From a bacterium (lineage in GTDB: Bacteria; Patescibacteriota; Minisyncoccia; Phycocordibacterales; Phycocordibacteraceae), in assembly GCA_021849125.1 (NCBI GenBank), contig JAJZTG010000005.1, positions 1 through 55,573 on the forward strand: a stretch of 55,573 nt of DNA, read 5' to 3'. The position numbers and the translations under genes are program-made. Shown one piece after another: positions 3,879-46,403 of the stretch (its first letter is position 1; each line of letters starts with the position of its first letter). Under the pieces are notes generated by a model. It did no database searches. It had not been told where the DNA came from and saw only the letters and a list, made by a program, of their open reading frames with translations.

Positions 3879-4454
3879 ATGCAAGACAACGGAAAGGGTC
3901 TTCTGAAGGATCTTTTCACGCTCGCGTTCCTTATTATCGTCGTCGTCATACCGATCAGGCTCTTCGTCGTCTCCCCGTTCGTAGTCGATGGCGAGTCGAT
4001 GCACCCCACCTTCGAGAATCTCGACTACCTCATCGTCAATGAACTCATCTACGTTTTCAAGTCCCCTGCTCGTGGCGACGTGATCGTCTTCCGCTACCCG
4101 GGAAATCCTTCGATCTTCTACATTAAGCGCGTCATCGGCCTCCCTGGCGAGACCGTCTCGATCGTAAAAGGTTCTGTCTCTATCACCGCAGCCGACGGTG
4201 CCACGTTCGAACTTCCCGAGCCCTACATCGTCTACGAGGACGCCACCTATACCAAGAAAGTTACCTTGGGTCCGGACGAATATTTCGTTATGGGTGATAA
4301 TCGCCCGAACAGTTCCGACAGCCGCGTATGGGGGGTTCTGCCTGTAAAGAACATCATCGGCCGCGCCGACCTGCGTCTTCTCCCGCCCTCAGAAAGCGGA
4401 TTCTTCCCGGGTACGACGCAGTACAACCTCGCTTCGACCACGCCTGCCTCATGA
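3879..4454 (+). CDS. lepB: signal peptidase I
   Basis: N-terminal TM segment, catalytic-Ser box VVDGESMHPTF, box E GDNRPNSSDSR. Confidence 0.9.
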   Translation: MQDNGKGLLKDLFTLAFLIIVVVIPIRLFVVSPFVVDGESMHPTFENLDYLIVNELIYVFKSPARGDVIVFRYPGNPSIFYIKRVIGLPGETVSIVKGSVSITAADGATFELPEPYIVYEDATYTKKVTLGPDEYFVMGDNRPNSSDSRVWGVLPVKNIIGRADLRLLPPSESGFFPGTTQYNLASTTPAS

Positions 4455-5599
4455 TGCGCACCACCATCCCGGCCGAAGAGATCCTGCATAAGGCGCATAG
4501 CGTCGGTCAATACTACGGCTTCCGCCCGCTTGCCGATCTCACCGCAAAAGCACGTGGTGCGGCCCGCGCAAAGGGCTATCCTGAAACGCTCGCGGGCATC
4601 ACGCTTGATCCTTCTGCTGAGTCTGTCGCGAGCTTTCTCAAGCAGTGCCAGAACATCGAGGCAGTGCCGTCGAGCCGTCAGCCGCTCTTCCTTTGGCATA
4701 CCAACATCGCTGCCGGACGCGCGCCTCAGAAAAAGGCGGTCGTGCAGTTCCACACGATCGGCGCCGATCGCGCGCTTGCTGATGCGGCGATCATCCGCGC
4801 GGCGCTCGCGCTTGTCCGTGACCTCTATCACGAGGAGCCAGTCCTGCGCATAAACTCGATGGGCGACAAAGAGACGCGCGCCCGCTACGCGCGCGAGCTT
4901 GGCAACTTCTTCAAGAAGCGTGCAGGCACACTCTCCGAAGAATGCCTTTCCCGTGCGAAAAGCGACGCCTTCGATGCGGCAGAATACATCATCGCGAACG
5001 AATGCGCGGATGAGCTCCCTGCGCCGACCGAACACCTCTCCGACGCGAGCCGCAAGCGTTTCGAAGACCTGCTCGAATACCTTGAGATGACCGAGACGCC
5101 GTACGAGCTCGCGCGCACGCTCCTCTCCCGCGGCAACGCGTGGAATGACCTCTGCTTCGAGATCCTCGCGGGCGAGAAGCGTGTCGCCTGGGGTTCGCGC
5201 TACAACGAGCTTGCGCGCCATTTCTTCAAGACGCCGTCACCGTTAACCGCGACTGGCGTCGTACTCACCTTTGCAAGCGGCGGTACGGCGGTCGTGAAGA
5301 AGGCACCGAGTCCGCGCATCCGCTTCTCGTTCGTCCACATCGGCGACGAAGCGAAACGCCTGTCGATCAAACTCGCTGAAGATCTGCGGAAAGCGCGTGT
5401 GCCCTTGGTGCAGCATATCGGCGTCGAGTCCCTCACCGAGCAGATGCTCCTCGCCGAACATGCTTCGACTCCGTATCTCCTCATCATGGGCCGCAAGGAA
5501 GCTCTCGAGTCTTCTGCCATCCTTCGCCATCGCGAGAATCAGACCGAGACCACCATCCCGCTTGCAAGCCTTATTGAACGGCTTAAGGCAACGGCGTAG
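4451..5599 (+). CDS. histidyl-tRNA synthetase-like protein with degenerate catalytic motifs and an intact anticodon-binding domain
   Basis: RINSMGDKETRARYARELGNFF resembles the HisRS LNS(I/L)G...R..Y region. The C-terminal about 90 aa resembles the class IIa anticodon-binding domain. Start ATG 4451 overlaps the lepB stop (ATGA). Motif 2, motif 3 and the LRPEGT box are all altered (see finding). Confidence 0.6.
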   Translation: MMRTTIPAEEILHKAHSVGQYYGFRPLADLTAKARGAARAKGYPETLAGITLDPSAESVASFLKQCQNIEAVPSSRQPLFLWHTNIAAGRAPQKKAVVQFHTIGADRALADAAIIRAALALVRDLYHEEPVLRINSMGDKETRARYARELGNFFKKRAGTLSEECLSRAKSDAFDAAEYIIANECADELPAPTEHLSDASRKRFEDLLEYLEMTETPYELARTLLSRGNAWNDLCFEILAGEKRVAWGSRYNELARHFFKTPSPLTATGVVLTFASGGTAVVKKAPSPRIRFSFVHIGDEAKRLSIKLAEDLRKARVPLVQHIGVESLTEQMLLAEHASTPYLLIMGRKEALESSAILRHRENQTETTIPLASLIERLKATA

Positions 5600-6371: not shown

Positions 6372-7464
6372 GGAATTCTCCGATAAGAGTCGGGGACGTC
6401 AGCTGCGCATCATCGGTACCGGCCTTGCCGAATCGAAAGGGCTTCATCACGGCTACATCGTCAACAAGGAAGAAGTGACTGCCAGCATCCTCAAAGCGAA
6501 GGAACAGGCTGAAGCCACCGCTCGGGTCCCGATCCGCTCCGCATTCCTCGCGGTAGGAGGCATCTCGCTCGACGAGGCGCGCGCGACTGGTTCCGCGATC
6601 ATCTCCCGTGCGGACCAGGAAATCACCGCGCTCGACATTGATAAGGCGATCAAGAGCGCACGCGAAGCAGCTGCACCAGGTTTCCTCAACCGTCAGGTCC
6701 TCCACAGCATTCCGGTCGAGTACCGTGTCGATGGAGCGAAGGTGTTCGGCGACCCGGTCGGCATGAAAGGCGTCCGCCTCGAGATCGATTATCTCTTCGT
6801 CACCTGCCTCGCCCAGCATGCGGACATGCTCGCAAAGGCGGTCGAGGACGCCGACATCGAGATTGTCGATCAGATGGCGTCGCCTTTGGCTGGTTCCTAC
6901 GTGCTTCTCGAGGGCGAGCAGAAGATGAAAGGCTGCGTGCTTGCGAATATCGGCGCTGAGACTGTCTCGATCGTGGTTTACGATGAGGGTATCCCTATTT
7001 CCGTGAAGGTCTTCCCGACCGGCTCGAGCCACATTACCGACGACATCGCGCTCGGTTTCCGCATCTCGCTTGAAGAAGCGGAGCGGGTGAAGCTCGGACG
7101 CCTCTCCGGTACGATGTATCCGCGCAAGAAGATCGATGATCTCGTCTTGGGTCGCCTCTCGGCGATGTTCACGCTCATCGACAAGCACTTGAAGTCGCTC
7201 GGCCGCCGCGGCCCTTTGCCTGCCGGCATCATCATCTCGGGCGGAGGTGCCGGTATCGGGAACGTAAGCGACATCGCGAAAGGCTCGCTGAAGCTTCCAG
7301 CGCGTCTCGCCGAATTCCGCATCTCTTCCGACACTAAGATGCGTGATGCGACCTGGGCCGTCTCCTACGGTCTGGCACTCTGGGGCCTTACTGGTGACAC
7401 GAACGCCCCTAAGAAGAGCTTTTCTGCTTCCTTCAACAAGTTCATTCAGCAATTCCTCCCTTAG
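6307..7464 (+). CDS. ftsA: cell division protein FtsA
   Basis: Actin-like ATPase N-terminus IATGIDIGTYQVKVVVVE and ISGGGAG phosphate-2 motif. Lies immediately upstream of ftsZ. Confidence 0.9.
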   Translation: MARRIATGIDIGTYQVKVVVVEEFSDKSRGRQLRIIGTGLAESKGLHHGYIVNKEEVTASILKAKEQAEATARVPIRSAFLAVGGISLDEARATGSAIISRADQEITALDIDKAIKSAREAAAPGFLNRQVLHSIPVEYRVDGAKVFGDPVGMKGVRLEIDYLFVTCLAQHADMLAKAVEDADIEIVDQMASPLAGSYVLLEGEQKMKGCVLANIGAETVSIVVYDEGIPISVKVFPTGSSHITDDIALGFRISLEEAERVKLGRLSGTMYPRKKIDDLVLGRLSAMFTLIDKHLKSLGRRGPLPAGIIISGGGAGIGNVSDIAKGSLKLPARLAEFRISSDTKMRDATWAVSYGLALWGLTGDTNAPKKSFSASFNKFIQQFLP

Positions 7465-7569: not shown

Positions 7570-8853
7570 ATGTCTAAACGCGTTGAACCAGAAATCGAGA
7601 CATTTGCCCGCATCCGCGTGGTCGGTGTCGGAGGGTCCGGCAAGAATGCCGTCAATCACATGATCGAGTCGAAGGTGCGTGGCGTCGAGTTCATCGCGGT
7701 GAACTCCGATGCACAGGACCTGCATCGCTCGCTCGCTAAGAAGAAGATCCATATCGGCAAGAATCTCACTCGCGGGCTTGGCACCGGCATGAACCCGGAG
7801 CTCGGCAAGCGTGCAGCGGAAGAGACGCGTCAGGAGATCCAGGAAGCGCTTCAGGGTTCGGACATGGTCTTCATCACGGGCGGTATGGGTGGCGGCACCG
7901 GCACAGGCGCCTCGTCGGTCGTCGCGAAGATCGCGAAGGAATCCGGCGCGCTCGTTATTGCGGTCGTGACCAAGCCGTTCTCTTTCGAAGGTGCCCAGCG
8001 TAAGGACATCGCGGAGCGCGGCCTTGCCGATCTCAAGAAGGAAGTAGACGCCTTCATCGTGATCCCGAACGACAAGCTTCTCTCGGTGGTCGACATGAAC
8101 ACCACCGCCAAGAGCGCCTTTGCCATGTGCGATGAGATCCTTCGCCAGGCTGTCGAAGGCGTATCCGACATCATCACCACCCCAGGCGAGATCAACACCG
8201 ACTTCAACGACATCAAAGCCATTATGGAAGGCGCGGGCCCGGCCCTTATGGGTATCGGCATTTCCGAAGGAGACGACCGCGCTTCGACGGCCGCTAAACA
8301 AGCAGTTAATTCCCCACTTCTCGATGTTTCGATCGGTGGAGCGAAAGGCATCCTCTTCGTGGTCGCTTCGAACGACGACCTCGGCATCATGGAGGTCCAG
8401 GAGGCTGCAAAGGTTATCAACGAGTCGGTCGACAAGAACGCGAAGATTATCTTCGGCATGATGAAGGACGAAAAGCTCAAGAAGGGCCAGATCCGCATCA
8501 TCGTCATCGCGACCGGCTTCCCCGAGAGCGCTGCGCATGCAACCCCGCATGTCGCTGGCTCGGAGCGTTCGCTCTTCTCGATGGCACCGGCTGAGCGTGA
8601 AGAAGAACGTGGCCGCATCTATCACGAAGTCCTCAAGCGCGATGACCATGGTGAACCTGAAGAGACAGCCTCAAAGGAGAAACCTGACCTTAAGAAAAAG
8701 GAGCAGAAGGCCCAGCCTCTCGCTTCTCTTGAAAAAGAAGAGCCGATCGTGACGGCTGTCCCCCACAAGCGCGATGAGCTCGCGACGCCTTCACCGGAAG
8801 ATGATGGCGCCTGGGGAGCGATACCGGAATTCCTCCGTCGTCACAAGAAGTAA
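7570..8853 (+). CDS. ftsZ: cell division GTPase FtsZ
   Basis: VVGVGGSGKNAVNHM and the tubulin signature GGMGGGTGTGASSVVA. Acidic/basic C-terminal linker and tail. Confidence 0.97.
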   Translation: MSKRVEPEIETFARIRVVGVGGSGKNAVNHMIESKVRGVEFIAVNSDAQDLHRSLAKKKIHIGKNLTRGLGTGMNPELGKRAAEETRQEIQEALQGSDMVFITGGMGGGTGTGASSVVAKIAKESGALVIAVVTKPFSFEGAQRKDIAERGLADLKKEVDAFIVIPNDKLLSVVDMNTTAKSAFAMCDEILRQAVEGVSDIITTPGEINTDFNDIKAIMEGAGPALMGIGISEGDDRASTAAKQAVNSPLLDVSIGGAKGILFVVASNDDLGIMEVQEAAKVINESVDKNAKIIFGMMKDEKLKKGQIRIIVIATGFPESAAHATPHVAGSERSLFSMAPAEREEERGRIYHEVLKRDDHGEPEETASKEKPDLKKKEQKAQPLASLEKEEPIVTAVPHKRDELATPSPEDDGAWGAIPEFLRRHKK

Positions 8854-21529: not shown

Positions 21530-21901
21530 CTGGTGCGGGTACCGGGGTCTCAACCGAGGGATTGGGAATCCGTAGGATTTCAGAACGGTATTCGCACTTT
21601 GTGCGGGATACGAGAATCGAACTCGTGCCTAGTGCGCGGGAATGAAAGTCTGTAGGGCTTTCATCGGTTTTCCGTAGGAAAACCGGTTCTGCCACTTAAC
21701 CTAAGCTGTGCGGGTACCGGGAATCGAACCCGGGTCTCAACCGAGGGATTGGGAATCCGTAGGATTCCCAACGGTATTCGCACTTTGTGCGGGATACGAG
21801 AATCGAACTCGTGCCTAGTGCTTGGGAAGCACTCATTCTGCCACTAAACTAATCCCGCACAAAAAGCGAATGCCGGTTCTGCCGACTCAAACCATACCCG
21901 C
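21530..21901 (-). repeat. duplicated tRNA-like module: two copies of about 180 nt, including split and degenerate tRNA-like pieces around tRNA-Gly
   Basis: 21534-21706 and 21709-21901 align over most of their length. Only 21788-21858 folds as a canonical tRNA (see finding). Confidence 0.6.
21788..21858 (-). tRNA. tRNA-Gly (anticodon CCC)
   Basis: GCGGGAT/TA/GTTTAGTGGCAGAAT/G/AGTGC-TTCCCAA-GCACT/AGGC/ACGAG-TTCGATT-CTCGT/ATCCCGC/A. Confidence 0.88.
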
Positions 21902-38990: not shown

Positions 38991-39066
38991 TGGTGGGCAT
39001 GCCTGGACTCGAACCAGGAACCGCCGAGGTATAAGCTCGGTGCTCTAACCATTGAGCTACATGCCC
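38991..39066 (-). tRNA. tRNA-Ile (anticodon UAU), CCA encoded
   Basis: GGGCATG/TA/GCTCAATGGTTAGAGC/A/CCGAG-CTTATAC-CTCGG/CGGTT/CCTGG-TTCGAGT-CCAGG/CATGCCC/A-CCA. Confidence 0.85.
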
Positions 39067-41799: not shown

Positions 41800-42243
41800 A
41801 TGATTCTCGTCGAATACAAGAAGGCCTTCCTGAGGTTCGCGCCTATCGAGACGTTTGCCGCAGGTATCGAACTTTCAGGCCAGGAGGTCAAAGCGCTTCG
41901 AAGCAAGCTCGGCTCGCTCGATGGCTCACGCGTGGTGGTGCGCGGCGGCGAGGCCTTTATCGTTGGCATGACGATCCCTCCCTACCAAGCGGCAAACCTG
42001 CCAAAGGGGTACGACCCAGAAGCCCCGCGGCGCCTCCTCCTCACCAAGAAAGAAATCGCGCATCTCGCTACGGAAGAGGCCAAGAAAGGGTTGACAATCG
42101 TGCCACTTGAGGTGTATTCTAGCGGCAGACTCATCAAGGCAAAGATCGCGATCGTCCACGGCAAAGGCAAAGCCGACCGCCGGGAGGACTTGAGGAAACG
42201 CGATGCCGCGCGCGAGACCGCGCGCGTGCTGAAAAACCGCTAA
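41800..42243 (+). CDS. smpB: SsrA-binding protein SmpB
   Basis: 147 aa with ...FETGIEL.G.EVK pattern (IETFAAGIELSGQEVKALR), LLLTKKEI and a basic C-terminal tail. Lies immediately upstream of ssrA. Confidence 0.93.
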   Translation: MILVEYKKAFLRFAPIETFAAGIELSGQEVKALRSKLGSLDGSRVVVRGGEAFIVGMTIPPYQAANLPKGYDPEAPRRLLLTKKEIAHLATEEAKKGLTIVPLEVYSSGRLIKAKIAIVHGKGKADRREDLRKRDAARETARVLKNR

Positions 42244-42395: not shown

Positions 42396-42805
42396 GGGGG
42401 TGACCGGCTTTGACGGTCTGTACTTTGAAAGACGTGCGACGCAGTGCACTCTCGCCTACCACTTAAATCTAGCGAGAAAACATACTTGCAAAGAACACTC
42501 TTGCAAGCGTAAAGTCCCCGTACTTCGGTATGAAGGATTTTGCGTTCGCCTACGCGTAAACCGCTTTTTACCGGTTACGCCTAGCGCGACGTCTTCTTCC
42601 AGTCGGCGCCCACAGCGCTGGGTGAGGGCGGAATCTTCTGTGAGCTAGGATCGCGGCCGTCCGCCCGCGTTCCGAAACAAGGACTCATCGTGGAGTGGTT
42701 TCGTCTCGATTTTTACACCCACGACCAGATTTCAATTGGGACTATGCGTCGTAGACTCGCTTTCATAGCCAGATTCGGACGGGGGTTCGATACCCCCCAC
42801 CTCCA
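42396..42805 (+). ncRNA. ssrA: tmRNA (SsrA)
   Basis: 5' GGGGGTGACCGGCTTTGACGG and 3' GGACGGGGGTTCGATACCCCCCACCTCCA form the tRNA-like domain. A candidate tag ORF starts at GCA 42488 and ends ...DFAFAYA-TAA at 42557-42559. Adjacent to smpB. Confidence 0.88.
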
Positions 42806-42818
42806 CAAAGCAGCAAGA

Positions 42819-42840
42819 GGTCCGCGCAAGCGGACTTTTT
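42819..42840 (+). terminator. terminator after ssrA
   Basis: GGTCCGC-GCAA-GCGGAC followed by TTTTT. Confidence 0.65.
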
Positions 42841-43004
42841 GCTTTGTGGAGTGGAGCGAGCCGACTGCTCGGCTCGTGTGGGGTATCGAGAGGCGGAGCG
42901 TTGCGCGTGAGCGCCGCGAGCCGGGGTCGAGAGCGCTTAGCGGATTGTGAACACTTGGAACAATACGCTTAGCGACTCGTGACCAACCCGCACCTTCATA
43001 TTCT

Positions 43005-43044
43005 ACAATAACGAACCCGCTTGAGCGGGTTCGTTATTGTTTTA
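43005..43044. terminator. strong hairpin at the left edge of the AT-rich island
   Basis: ACAATAACGAACCCGC-TTGA-GCGGGTTCGTTATTGT followed by TTTTATTT. Abuts the stop codon of the 43042..43512 gene. Confidence 0.65.
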
Positions 43045-43512
43045 TTTCGAAGTATCGATAGCTATTTCGAGAGGTACTATCGCAACATTTTTAAAAGTGT
43101 TGGTATCGACATCCTTGAAATCGACAAGCACTTCGTAGTCACCTGTGATACTCACTGGTATATTTTCAAATCGCGTTCGTACTCGCATATTACGAATACC
43201 CTTTTCAATAGCGACCCTTCTTTCAGAATTGAAGTTCGTCTTACCTTTTGGATCTTGTAAGCGAATACGGATATCAAACGCGCTTGGACGCCCCGCGTCA
43301 GGTCGGAAAAATCGACTAACAACCTCAAAAGGAAGCGAGAAAACAATGCCATCTTTCTTCTCTTCTTTAACTTTCTCCATTACATCTTTCGGAACATTGA
43401 TTGTTATTTTCTCGATAAGATTTGAGAGACTGATATTATTGGTTTCTTTGTCTATTACAGAAGTTGAGCAAACTGCGGACCAAATATGTGTTATTCCTAA
43501 TTCTTTTTGCAT
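43042..43512 (-). CDS. hypothetical protein (156 aa, predicted beta-rich), third gene of the island operon
   Basis: Full-length ORF in the AT-rich island. ATG lies 4 nt after the upstream stop (TAA-AACC-ATG). No motif I recognise. Confidence 0.55.
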   Translation of the reverse strand: MQKELGITHIWSAVCSTSVIDKETNNISLSNLIEKITINVPKDVMEKVKEEKKDGIVFSLPFEVVSRFFRPDAGRPSAFDIRIRLQDPKGKTNFNSERRVAIEKGIRNMRVRTRFENIPVSITGDYEVLVDFKDVDTNTFKNVAIVPLEIAIDTSK

Positions 43513-43516
43513 GGTT

Positions 43517-43918
43517 TTAGATTGTTACTGTTTGAGCGGTATTCCTCGGCATTGACCAAATCCCTCCCCACTGGTTTACACTCATAAAACCCGATGCCGA
43601 ACTAGAAACCGATTCTAAAGCGTACTCGTATGCCGGAACCCCTTCCAAATGAAGCTTGGGGGCCTCCAATGTAGCTCCAACTGCTCTAGCAATCTTCTTT
43701 AGAAGAGGATGGCTTGGGAGGACAGCTCCTGTCTCCGCTCTGGCAATACTAGACTGTGTGGTCTGTGCAAGTTCAGCAAGACGCGCTTGAGTAAACCCGC
43801 GTGAGATACGAGCTTTTGTAATAATTGCACTTACATCCGCATCGTAGCGATCTTCCCATTTTCTCTCTCGTGAAGAGAGAATTTTCTTAGTTACGGTATG
43901 GATATTTTTTATGCTCAT
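43517..43918 (-). CDS. XRE-family helix-turn-helix protein (133 aa)
   Basis: ISRGFTQARLAELAQTTQSSIARAETGAVLPSHPLLKKIARAVG matches the HTH_3/XRE pattern. Has an about 30-aa N-terminal and an about 50-aa C-terminal extension. Confidence 0.75.
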   Translation of the reverse strand: MSIKNIHTVTKKILSSRERKWEDRYDADVSAIITKARISRGFTQARLAELAQTTQSSIARAETGAVLPSHPLLKKIARAVGATLEAPKLHLEGVPAYEYALESVSSSASGFMSVNQWGGIWSMPRNTAQTVTI

Positions 43919-43926
43919 GGTTTTAT

Positions 43927-44274
43927 TTATTTTTGTAACTTCTTCGCGGCCGCTTCACGGACTTTTTTTGGGAGAATACGCCCTCTCTTCCTTTGAATAT
44001 CGACGACCCAAAACATGCAGTCACGCAATGATCCTATTGGCACAGTTTGACCCAAGAGACGAAACGAACCAATCACTAACTCCTGGAGAGGCTTGGGAAG
44101 CAAATCCTTTAATACTTCCGCTTTCCTCAATTGAAGGAGCTGCTGCCCTTGCACCTCCTGCATCTTTGAATCAATCTGCTCAATGTCAGTTGTTTCAAGA
44201 TGCTCTAGTTGCTCTTCAGCACAAGACGTGAGTGCTACGCTGATTAGCATTGGCTTCTTGTCCAAATCTGACAT
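43927..44274 (-). CDS. hypothetical protein (115 aa), first gene of the island operon
   Basis: Acidic, coiled-coil-like N-half and basic C-terminus (IQRKRGRILPKKVREAAAKKLQK). TGCTATATT -10 lies 7 nt before the ATG. Confidence 0.5.
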   Translation of the reverse strand: MSDLDKKPMLISVALTSCAEEQLEHLETTDIEQIDSKMQEVQGQQLLQLRKAEVLKDLLPKPLQELVIGSFRLLGQTVPIGSLRDCMFWVVDIQRKRGRILPKKVREAAAKKLQK

Positions 44275-44647
44275 TTTTCTAATATAGCACTACCGCTATA
44301 TTTATACAACTACCCACTCTGCGCATAAACAGAGACGTTACCATGTGACCTTTCTTCCTGCGTGCGGTTATAGAAGGCAGAGGGGTTTGAAACTTGGCGG
44401 AGGTGGAGGCAGGTAAGGTTTGTCTGAGTTTTTTGCTTTCCGCACACTCGACATCCTTACCTCCTCCCCTCTCGGCCATCCTTATCTTCTTCAACTTCAA
44501 CCCTTCTACCTTGTCCTTTCTCGTCAGATGCATCTACACCTATCACTACCTCTTCCGCGTCTGACACCCCTGTTCCTTCTTCTTTTTCTTCCTCCCGTTC
44601 CTTTTCTTCCAAGACCAGCTTTGCTGGTCTTTTTGTATACTGCTTGT

Positions 44648-45202
44648 ATGAAACCCCTCCCCCGCTCGTGGTTTGAAGAAGACGCAGTCACCCTGGCACC
44701 CAAGCTCCTCGGCAAGATCGTGAAGAAAGGCTCGTGCGTAGGCGTCATCGTCGAGACGGAAGCCTACACCACCGACGCTGCGTCGCACGCAGCAAAGGGC
44801 GGCGAACGCGGACGCCTCATGCGCGAAACCTTCGGACACTGGTACGTCTACTTCACCTACGGTATGCACTGGTGCGCAAACGTAACGACGAACAAGGGCG
44901 GCACGGGCGCCGTACTCATCCGCGCGGTCGAGCCGACTGAAGGGTTTGCCGCAATGAAGCGCCGCCGCAAGACCGATGCGCCGAAGAACCTCACGAACGG
45001 CCCGGCGAAATTCTGCCAGGCTTTCGGCATCACCGGCAAAGAGAACGACTTGCCCGTGGGTGGCGACTTCGCGATTTATGACGCACCAGAGAGGGCAAAG
45101 AAAGACATCGGCACTTCCGGCCGCATCGGTATCAAAAACGGGACCGAACTCCCCTGGCGTTTTTACATAAAAGGCAACCCGTTCGTGAGCCGGGCAAAAT
45201 AA
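44648..45202 (+). CDS. mpg: DNA-3-methyladenine glycosylase (Mpg/AAG family)
   Basis: FEEDAVTLAPKLLGK, VGVIVETEAYT..DAASHA, YVYFTYGMHWCANV, AVLIRAVEP and NGPAKFCQAFGI match the family. Hairpin, then TATACT, then ATG 8 nt later. Confidence 0.88.
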   Translation: MKPLPRSWFEEDAVTLAPKLLGKIVKKGSCVGVIVETEAYTTDAASHAAKGGERGRLMRETFGHWYVYFTYGMHWCANVTTNKGGTGAVLIRAVEPTEGFAAMKRRRKTDAPKNLTNGPAKFCQAFGITGKENDLPVGGDFAIYDAPERAKKDIGTSGRIGIKNGTELPWRFYIKGNPFVSRAK

Positions 45203-45248
45203 AAGCTGTCCCGAAGGACGACTTGAGAAGAGCTAAATGGTCAGGCCA

Positions 45249-45905
45249 TCATGCTAGGTGATGAGTGCATATGCTTCCGCGAGATTTTTTTGCCTGATAC
45301 AACATCTTGTCGGCAATCTGATAGACCTCTTGGAATGCGTGCATCCCTACACCCATCACGACACCCACCGACAGAGATACCGTTCTAGTGAGCCCTGGGT
45401 GTTCGATTTCAGACGCCAAATGCTTCAAGCGTTCAACAACGATCTCGACTTCACTCGGAGCAGCAGCAAGAACCAGGAAGAACTCATCACCGCCCAGACG
45501 AGCGATTGAACATTCTCCTTGCCGTAGGGTATGCCTCAGGATCTCAGCGATCTCTTGAAGCACGTAGTCCCCAACCGGATGACCGCCCTCATCGTTAATC
45601 TGCTTGAAGTTATCGATATCAAAGGCCACTACGCAGATATCACCACGCGTGACTCGATACCGCTCCTCCCAGCGTACTTCGAGGCCTCGCCTGTTGAACA
45701 AGCCAGTAAGCGGGTCTCTCTGCGCGAGTTCGACCATCACGCAACCCTTGCACTCTTCTTGCCTCTTTACGGCGAGTCGTATGAGCAATTCACGCAACTG
45801 TCCGCCATCCAAATTGAGTTTCCCCACGATGTCCCGCAGAGCTTCCTCATTGGTACCGGCTTGAATGATCGCATTGACGACTTGTTCGTACGTTTTATCA
45901 CACAT
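45249..45905 (-). CDS. standalone GGDEF-domain nucleotide cyclase (218 aa)
   Basis: RDPLTGLFNRRG, AFDIDNFKQINDEGGHPVGD, ARLGGDEFFLVL. No RxxD I-site (reads RQGE). Only about 65 aa of N-terminal sequence, with no recognisable sensor domain. Confidence 0.85.
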   Translation of the reverse strand: MCDKTYEQVVNAIIQAGTNEEALRDIVGKLNLDGGQLRELLIRLAVKRQEECKGCVMVELAQRDPLTGLFNRRGLEVRWEERYRVTRGDICVVAFDIDNFKQINDEGGHPVGDYVLQEIAEILRHTLRQGECSIARLGGDEFFLVLAAAPSEVEIVVERLKHLASEIEHPGLTRTVSLSVGVVMGVGMHAFQEVYQIADKMLYQAKKSRGSICTHHLA

Positions 45906-46015
45906 CCCACTCTCCTTTTAATCGTTGAGTTGAAATACTTCCTTCTGATTTAGATAATAAATCATATACTACCTTTAGTCAAGATTCTTGTGCCTGGCTC
46001 GCTCTATAAAAATCT

Positions 46016-46375
46016 ATGATAGAGTCGGAACAGACCAGTGTACAAACGAGGTGGGTTATGAAAACAGATACTGAGATCAGTATGGCGCGCGAGCGTCTTC
46101 AAAAGACAACTGTTTTGCATCTAGAGGGCCCAGGGGTTCTCTTTCTCATGGTGAGCAGGGTGTTGCAAGGCAATTCTTGCACGCTCGTAAAGCTTTCTGA
46201 CGTAAAAGTGGATACTCGAATCGCGGTAGCGGAGAGGCTGAAAAGTTTGCTCGAGCAGATGCAGATCACAGAACTCCCATCGGAAGAAAGGAACGCTATT
46301 CTGATAGAGATCCTCTTTTGGGCGGCAAGCCAGATCGCAAAGCCTCACATCCAGCAAGACCGACAGAACAAATAA
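46016..46375 (+). CDS. hypothetical protein (up to 119 aa)
   Basis: ORF divergent from the GGDEF gene. TATAAA box upstream and terminator AACCTCCGG-GCAA-CCGGAGGTTTTTT downstream. Start is uncertain (ATG 46016 or 46058). Confidence 0.4.
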   Translation: MIESEQTSVQTRWVMKTDTEISMARERLQKTTVLHLEGPGVLFLMVSRVLQGNSCTLVKLSDVKVDTRIAVAERLKSLLEQMQITELPSEERNAILIEILFWAASQIAKPHIQQDRQNK

Positions 46376-46403
46376 GAACCTCCGGGCAACCGGAGGTTTT
46401 TTG

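Follow-up and report, generated by a model that had tools for sequence, protein, structure and literature searches.

A candidate three-component toxin-antitoxin operon with a DUF6941-related third gene at the tmRNA locus of a Patescibacteria genome

The window analysed here is a 55,573-nt stretch of a Patescibacteriota genome (contig JAJZTG010000005.1, positions 1 to 55,573), in which a minus-strand operon of three genes lies close to ssrA, the gene for transfer-messenger RNA (tmRNA). The three open reading frames (ORFs) fill a stretch of low GC content (0.40-0.47 across about 43000-44600, against 0.55-0.62 in the flanks), code for proteins of 115, 133 and 156 aa and are separated by gaps of 8 nt (genes 1 and 2) and 4 nt (genes 2 and 3). 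An initial annotation, made from the letters alone, had described an AT-rich island next to ssrA that carries a tight three-gene operon ending at a hairpin, and had proposed it as a novel toxin-antitoxin (TA) or defence module; the island, the operon and the hairpin are all as described. The features of the operon are the following.

44274-43927, minus strand: gene 1, 115 aa, a divergent Gp49/HigB-type protein with a predicted RelE fold
43918-43517, minus strand: gene 2, 133 aa, a candidate antitoxin with an XRE-type helix-turn-helix (HTH) domain at about residues 33-85
43520-43648, minus strand: C-terminal extension of gene 2 (about residues 91-133, some 43 residues; VPAYEYALESVSSSASGFMSVNQWGGIWSMPRNTAQTVTI), rich in Ser, Thr and Asn with scattered Tyr, Phe and Trp
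43512-43042, minus strand: gene 3, 156 aa, a predicted beta-sandwich of a DUF6941-related family, the conserved third component
44281-44309, minus strand: putative promoter/operator, with an extended -10 box TGCTATATT at 44281-44289, a palindrome at 44281-44302 and a -35 box TTGTAT at 44304-44309
43005-43040, no strand assigned: perfect hairpin of 16-17 bp found by repeat search, immediately past the stop codon of gene 3

The operon and its predicted products

Both gene junctions read TAA(..)AAAACC-ATG, as first annotated, and a Shine-Dalgarno (SD) sequence is absent before all three genes (43913-43927, 43510-43520 and 44272-44289). Since the start codons of gene 2 and gene 3 follow the preceding stop codon after 8 and 4 nt, in the same TAAAACCATG context, the layout suggests that both genes are translated by termination-reinitiation coupling. 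Upstream of gene 1, the minus strand carries TTGTAT-N17-TATATT with a TG before the -10 box. The initial annotation had recognised this promoter as leaderless-type; TGCTATATT is indeed present, although its distance to the ATG is 6 nt and not 7. As the -10 box ends 6 nt before the start codon, the mRNA of gene 1 is probably leaderless. A consensus promoter scan skips this promoter because its -35 box fits only 3/6. The hairpin past gene 3 is called by a terminator scan on the plus strand only, with the tail TTTATTT; its T-run lies on the plus-strand side, so that a transcript of the minus-strand operon would have the hairpin but no U-tract after it.

The -10 box sits in a perfect 8-nt inverted repeat, AATATAGC-N6-GCTATATT (44281-44302), and an arm of equal length appeared in 0/300 shuffled sequences. 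A palindrome AATATAAC-N6-GTTATATT, with the half-sites and spacing found in the window, also covers the -10 box upstream of gene 1 at four other loci (L005, L018, L021 and L121; loci of the comparison set are cited by L numbers), and the same half-sites recur with a spacer shorter by 4 nt at L031, L117 and L122. Six of these seven operator-bearing loci (L018, L021, L031, L117, L121 and L122, not L005) have a TTGACA -35 box. A palindromic operator thus lies at the promoter with its half-sites kept in homologous operons, a putative binding site of the kind that TA-type autoregulation would use.

Gene 1 taken alone gives no Pfam match at E<=1 and only chance-level matches to PDB sequences. Nor did a word-based homologue search return any match, PADLOC, PHROGs and NCBIfam gave nothing beyond chance level, and BLASTP against the first gene of the L001 trio found nothing. 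Its family emerged through related operons. In the nearest trio, L011, the first gene is 42% identical to window gene 1 and the third gene 54% identical to window gene 3, and hhalign aligned the window/L011 pair of first genes colinearly over 92 columns with the Gp49-type first genes of other trios (E 7.6e-4, probability 25%). The latter pass the Pfam Gp49 cut-off (PF05973, 23.9 bits) at 29.6 bits for L001 and 46.6 bits for L006, and all 12 matches to the first-gene profile carry PF05973. Aligned with these 12 Gp49 proteins, gene 1 keeps all five invariant residues (E65, R72, K96, P102 and A109), of which K96 falls on the HigB1 position altered in the K95A structures (PMC9098466). The gene 1 profile matches Streptococcus pneumoniae HigB (6af3) at 9.7e-15 and HigB1 at 1e-6. 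An AlphaFold2 (AF2) model with b-a-a-b-b-b-a topology (predicted local distance difference test score, pLDDT, 79; predicted template modelling score, pTM, 0.72) has RelE, S. pneumoniae HigB, HigB2 and Mycobacterium tuberculosis HigB1 as its top PDB fold matches, with template modelling (TM) scores up to 0.78 on target, but it is biased towards the Gp49 fold because its input alignment was made of Gp49 proteins. This bias and the silence of gene 1 on its own in Pfam and PDB searches speak against the assignment. From profile and predicted fold together we conclude that gene 1 probably codes for a divergent Gp49/HigB-type toxin with a RelE fold.

The XRE-type HTH that the initial annotation had placed in the middle protein is present (HTH_31 at 1.7e-8 and HTH_3 at 1.9e-8, both close to 2e-8), and gene 2 shares 41% identity with its counterpart in the L001 trio. 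PADLOC matched it only to generic HTH regions (capH and RmrA N-termini). Given the RelE/HigB fold and the conserved Gp49 residues of gene 1, the core of the operon looks like an ordinary HigBA/Tad-Ata-type pair, and genes 1 and 2 very probably form a real TA pair. The initial annotation was right in pairing the XRE protein with partners in a TA-type cassette, but the novelty is narrower than it had proposed: it is limited to a conserved, DUF6941-like third gene combined with a lengthened antitoxin, which is undescribed as far as we searched.

Past its HTH domain, gene 2 runs on into the extension listed above, and the composition of the antitoxin tail is 9.2% Phe, Trp and Tyr and 31% Ser, Thr, Asn and Gln. 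Counted from the recognition helix, 16 trio antitoxins reach 31-72 residues past the HTH, compared with -1 and 17 residues in two Gp49-XRE pairs that have no relative of gene 3 and whose antitoxins measure 91 and 111 aa. Long antitoxin tails go together with the presence of gene 3. The tails of the trio antitoxins are variable and polar, with aromatic residues, and the chaperone addiction (ChAD) elements of known three-gene systems are likewise variable, polar and aromatic-containing (PMC5105189; bioRxiv 10.1101/2024.02.24.581848). A hydrophobic-x-hydrophobic pattern in the last seven residues occurs in 15/25 antitoxins against a background of 33% (p about 0.006), a weak lead only since the sequences are not independent.

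The initial annotation had stated that the first and third proteins match nothing nameable, which holds for neither of them: gene 1 is assigned as above and gene 3 is related to DUF6941. A word-based search with gene 3 returned a single homologue, 44% identical, while an exhaustive profile search returned representatives of 1700 clusters (at 50% identity) with E<=1e-3, 702 of them with E<=1e-10. Pfam DUF6941 (PF22091) is matched by 58 of 102 gene 3 relatives at E<=0.01 (best 4.5e-7). Window gene 3 itself scores 15.6 bits (E 0.022), below the gathering threshold of 27 bits and with only its C-terminal half aligned; judged by profile it is a distant relative of DUF6941 and not a member by Pfam's own rule. 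We found no papers on DUF6941, PF22091, or DUF4258 together with DUF2283 in an incomplete literature collection. PADLOC, PHROGs and NCBIfam gave nothing beyond chance level for gene 3, and no relative of it was found in IMG/VR, among PLSDB plasmids or among INPHARED phages.

The AF2 model of gene 3 is of very high confidence (pLDDT 95.4, pTM 0.87) and shows 11 strands packed as a sandwich, plus a single short helix. Foldseek, which the initial annotation had suggested as a check, placed gene 3 among beta-sandwiches: its PDB matches are PDE6delta, RhoGDI, UNC119 and the Wzt carbohydrate-binding domain (E about 1e-4, TM 0.34-0.54), and its matches in a viral library are uncharacterised phage proteins (best TM 0.68/0.78 at a root-mean-square deviation of 3.3, Anoxybacillus phage A403 A0A2P1JU14). 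We also considered gene 3 as a SecB and rejected this identity: neither gene 3 nor its 102 relatives match Pfam SecB (PF02556), the model is all-beta and no SecB is among the top 50 PDB matches. Across the 102 relatives, which are about 30% identical overall, residues H9, W11, C15, D21, N25, S28, E34, P88, R110, G124, Y126 and P147 are near-invariant and cluster in an N-terminal motif, HxWSxxCxxSxxDxxTNNxSLxN, outside the part that aligns with DUF6941. This pattern looks like that of a binding or catalytic site.

Recurrence of the trio

We examined 29 independent contexts of gene 3 relatives on metagenome contigs and in metagenome-assembled genomes (MAGs) of Parcubacteria, Saccharibacteria and Chloroflexota, most of them Patescibacteria. 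Whether the trio co-occurs in other genomes had been put forward at the outset as a check, and it does: in 28 of the 29 contexts, a tight trio in a single orientation ends with the gene 3 relative. These trios are of three classes.

Class A (n=19): first gene Gp49-type; second gene an XRE antitoxin of 121-167 aa
Class B (n=6): first gene DUF4258; second gene DUF2283, 93-114 aa
Class C (n=3, Chloroflexota): first gene CHAP-like, 168 aa; second gene without assignment, 182-206 aa

The class A count includes two contig-end fragments (L112 and L114), which show no more than gene 3 and the C-terminal part of the antitoxin. In class B, a 93-aa protein has a DUF2283 domain that reaches only to residue 50. 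The toxin families of the RelE/ParE superfamily include Gp49 as well as DUF4258 (PMC11980606), and the trio architecture is found with at least two unrelated antitoxin families. In the Chloroflexota trios (L009:350-1835, L010:1317-2834 and L027:751-2253), a conserved 168-aa protein with a weak CHAP match and a protein of 182-206 aa without matches precede the gene 3 relative; this pair may be a third, unrecognised TA-like pair with the same third component. Behind three kinds of pair and in distant phyla, gene 3 keeps its position and orientation, with a spacing that goes from 4 nt to overlapping. A functional link of gene 3 to genes 1 and 2 is probable. A neighbour-joining tree of gene 3, drawn without support values, separates the partner classes partially but not cleanly.

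Two trios of different class stand about 440 nt apart on one Saccharibacteria contig (L007:2712-3712 and 4149-5447), namely DUF4258-DUF2283-DUF6941 and Gp49-XRE-DUF6941, and the same arrangement is found in L019 and L020. Other Patescibacteria trios often adjoin translation genes or lie within clusters of them, with positions between rplB and rpsS, after rpsL-rpsG, before tuf, or beside rplJ/rplL (L001:86-2770, L006:3166-5417, L014:417-2454, L023:1051-2427 and L025:1920-4456), and the window copy adjoins ssrA. In small genomes such siting could come about by chance, or else the cassettes could truly prefer these places; it is noteworthy in the case of a toxin that would be expected to cleave mRNA on the ribosome.

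The insertion at the 3' end of ssrA

The features around the operon are as follows.

41800-42243, plus strand: smpB, upstream of ssrA
42396-42806, plus strand: tmRNA gene ssrA (ARAGORN; Rfam RF00023, 99 bits), whose 3' end is the insertion point
42843-43000, plus strand: GC-rich conserved element of about 150 nt, inside the insertion and outside the trio
44310-44610, no strand assigned: non-coding spacer reaching from the operon promoter to the ancestral tmRNA terminator, pyrimidine-rich on the plus strand (GC skew -0.25)
44611-44650, plus strand: ancestral junction, consisting of a hairpin, TTTTGTATACTGCTTGT and the ATG of the methylpurine glycosylase (MPG) gene, the same as in L032 and L057; right-hand boundary of the insertion
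44648-45202, plus strand: MPG gene (Pfam PF02245, 1e-53)

The SmpB of the window shares 65-86% identity with its counterparts in 80 MAGs, whose labels are Kaiserbacteria, Paceibacterota, Parcubacteria or Patescibacteria. In these genomes the order FtsH-SmpB-tmRNA is followed by TypA after a variable 0.05-5 kb, and trio relatives were found at none of these smpB-ssrA loci. The closest relatives, L032 and L057, have an empty site at which the tmRNA is followed within about 40 nt by a hairpin, TTTTGTATACTGCCTGC and the ATG of the MPG gene (positions of which were taken from blastn and alignment); the junction there, directly after the tmRNA, reads hairpin-TTTTGTATACT-GCCTGC-ATG. In the window, blastn homology to the relatives restarts at 44630-44648. 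Because the junction hairpin-TTTTGTATACTGCTTGT-ATG is common to the window and the empty-site relatives, about 1.8 kb has been inserted between the 3' end of the tmRNA and the ancestral terminator. As read from these junctions, the trio region is about 1.8 kb of foreign DNA (42807 to about 44605) at the tmRNA 3' end, in line with the mobile DNA that the initial annotation had suspected at this gene.

The insertion resembles the ssrA-targeting genomic islands in lying exactly at the tmRNA 3' end, in its deviant composition and in the empty site of close relatives. Unlike them, it is only about 1.8 kb long, it has no integrase-like ORF within 42807-44610, and a repeat search found no clear flanking direct repeat of the tmRNA 3' end, only degenerate resemblance to it at about 42985-43000 and 44575-44605. 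Since ssrA is a classic integration site, one reading is that the operon is the regulatory remnant of a prophage or integrative element, its Gp49-like and XRE genes forming a lysogeny-type switch and the rest being lost. The insertion at ssrA with no integrase left, the PHROGs matches of gene 2, which are phage repressors, and the phage origin of the name Gp49 are what such a remnant would leave. We nevertheless consider it very unlikely, since the trio is intact in many contexts other than prophages, including the inside of ribosomal-protein operons, the IMG/VR, INPHARED and PLSDB searches gave no matches, and in the window the ORFs are intact and keep the conserved residues of their families.

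The spacer at 44310-44610 aligns weakly to tmRNA 3' ends. Its 84-aa ORF has no Pfam, PADLOC or PHROGs match and only a chance-level NCBIfam match (E 0.13), and the spacer may be what is left, after decay, of the displaced tmRNA 3' end or of the lost part of the element. At the other end, the first ~190 nt of the insertion form a separate region with a conserved element (42843-43000), which the initial annotation had mentioned as ssrA-associated repeats. This element is 74-90% identical at the nucleotide level to sequences just 3' of the tmRNA in L061 (6963-7125), L050 (two copies, 8543-8705 and 7277-7371), L101 (3010-3160), L085 and L069, although the host proteins of these Kaiserbacteria-like genomes are only about 75% identical. 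A consensus fold from four sequences shows compensatory changes in 12 of 40 pairs, an Rfam search with the element matched no family, and the L101 copy has a direct repeat of the tmRNA 3' end behind it. This sequence may represent a small mobile element, or else an RNA that has not been described.

The interval between tmRNA and TypA is a variable hotspot in this lineage, measuring 54 nt to about 5 kb among the 80 relatives (L032-L111); in the window it spans 42807-46403. A second stretch of lower GC content within it (45249-46375, 0.45-0.53) encodes a stand-alone GGDEF protein of 218 aa and a 119-aa ORF weakly matching DUF6870. Elsewhere in the window lie a tRNA-Ile gene with the anticodon UAU (38991-39066) and a pair of neighbouring tRNA-Gly(CCC) genes separated by 5 nt (21708-21858).

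Proposed function and comparison with known systems

We propose that the island operon is a horizontally acquired, SecB-independent three-component TA system. Gene 1 would be a Gp49/HigB-type toxin of RelE fold, expected to act as a ribosome-dependent mRNA endonuclease, and gene 2 an XRE-HTH antitoxin that would neutralise it and repress the operon by binding the palindrome overlapping the -10 box. The disordered-looking C-terminal tail of the antitoxin, some 43 residues long, would be bound and stabilised by gene 3, which a trigger, for example a phage protein, might draw away. In this way gene 3 would fill, with an unrelated fold, the role that a SecB-like chaperone has in toxin-antitoxin-chaperone (TAC) systems. 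It is in this conditional sense that we infer toxicity, its neutralisation, the contact between tail and gene 3 and any role in defence. Taken as a whole, with gene 3 acting through the tail as stabiliser or sensor, the model is tentative, and we hold it a little short of evenly balanced. The defence role that the initial annotation had proposed to check with PADLOC stays a guess. Genes 1 and 3 match no described anti-phage system in PADLOC-DB 2.0.0.

Several observations pull the other way. The contrast between long and short antitoxins has two controls only, and the analogy with TAC rests on architecture alone, gene 3 not being SecB-like. The near-invariant polar residues of gene 3 (H9, C15, D21, N25, S28, E34 and R110) could point to an enzymatic or ligand-binding role rather than to a holdase. 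There is also a solitary member of the gene 3 family, P0075 (L113), on a large contig. Finally, in a mirror-tree comparison of pairwise divergence, genes 1 and 2 are correlated (rho 0.36, p 0.002), whereas genes 2 and 3 are not (rho 0.12, not significant).

The solitary member and the uncorrelated divergence of gene 3 are what one would expect if the operon were an ordinary two-gene HigBA/Tad-Ata-type module with a hitch-hiking gene that has a function of its own, for instance a phage-derived protein, and among the structural relatives of gene 3 are stand-alone, uncharacterised phage proteins. Such a hitch-hiker would however have to take the same position, orientation and tight spacing behind three kinds of gene pair in distant phyla, with consistently longer antitoxins where it is present, and neither a separate promoter nor an SD sequence precedes gene 3 in the window; we consider it quite improbable. 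The likeness of gene 3 to DUF6941 and to phage beta-sandwich proteins lies in the profile matches of its relatives and in the fold match to a phage protein. These phage relatives, unlike gene 3, have no known link to TA genes, and for DUF6941 the literature collection yielded no published function.

A further alternative keeps gene 3 tied to the TA pair but not as a stabilising chaperone: it would be an enzyme or adaptor acting on the tail, by protease delivery or cleavage, or a sensor or second effector that activates the toxin. Synteny is equally strong under this explanation and under the stabiliser model, and with W11 added to the polar residues above, the conserved set is more like an active or ligand site than the generic surface of a holdase. 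The fold matches to PDE6delta, RhoGDI, UNC119 and the Wzt carbohydrate-binding domain are ligand-binding sandwiches, although with a TM of only 0.4-0.55, and no protease, sortase or known adaptor is among the top fold or profile matches. The correlation with long tails suits any tail-directed role and does not discriminate. We regard this alternative as less likely than the stabiliser model.

Among known systems, the two-gene Gp49/HigB-XRE modules (S. pneumoniae HigBA, Tad-Ata, HigB1/HigB3 type) resemble the first two genes in having a RelE-fold toxin upstream of an XRE-HTH antitoxin in one operon, a palindromic operator at the promoter and the toxin/antitoxin order given for gp49 (PMC11980606); the profile match to S. 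pneumoniae HigB extends the likeness to the toxin itself. They differ in that the window has a third gene, apparently coupled in translation, and an antitoxin tail of the length seen among the trios (31-72 residues), and in that window gene 1 is too divergent for detection by Pfam.

In TAC systems (M. tuberculosis HigB1-HigA1-SecB(TA), Rv1955-1957; E. coli HigBAC and CmdTAC), the ChAD tail of the antitoxin is bound and protected by a SecB-like chaperone, for which a phage protein can be a competitor (PMC5105189, PMC6377645, bioRxiv 10.1101/2024.02.24.581848). The trio shares with them the order toxin, antitoxin, third gene; a toxin that, in the window, probably belongs to the same Pfam family (Gp49, PF05973) as the TAC toxin HigB1; an antitoxin whose C-terminal extension, variable and polar with aromatic residues, is missing from two-gene relatives; and a third gene paired with several unrelated antitoxin families, here in the combinations Gp49 and XRE, DUF4258 and DUF2283, and CHAP-like with its unassigned partner. 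It differs in its third protein, predicted to be an 11-strand beta-sandwich without PF02556 and with PDE6delta, RhoGDI, UNC119 and Wzt as best PDB matches, in its antitoxins, which are XRE and DUF2283 instead of the HigA, MqsA and HicB described for TAC, and in its hosts, Patescibacteria and Chloroflexota. As a SecB-like third gene is the defining feature of TAC, the trio is not a member. Tail binding by gene 3, which would follow the TAC principle with another fold, is still the most parsimonious mechanism to propose.

A broader and more doubtful reading is that DUF6941-related sandwiches form a second, SecB-independent class of 'addicted' three-component TA systems, in which the tail is held and competition for the holder frees a RelE-type toxin; the class would be common among Patescibacteria and would occur in Chloroflexota as well, would converge on the TAC principle and might serve as an immune module. 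To our knowledge, ultra-small episymbiotic bacteria have few known defences. In the TAC precedent, a chaperone and a degron-like tail turn a TA pair into a switch that senses phage proteins, and if our reading is true, the three-part TA design would be a general, repeatedly evolved solution. A function would be found for the uncharacterised DUF6941-like family, which counts about 1700 clusters at 50% identity, and there would be a handle on stress and defence biology in the candidate phyla radiation, a huge, mostly uncultured group with very small genomes.

PDE6delta, RhoGDI and UNC119 are eukaryotic lipid-binding proteins that keep hold of a client protein's hydrophobic terminal tail. These solubilising factors, which we term guanine nucleotide dissociation inhibitor (GDI)-like, are beta-sandwiches and the top PDB fold matches of gene 3. 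With TM scores of only 0.34-0.51 and 8-15% identity, this is a resemblance of fold class and not evidence of homology or of a shared ligand, yet GDI-like factors offer a useful mechanistic picture of how a sandwich might bind an antitoxin tail.

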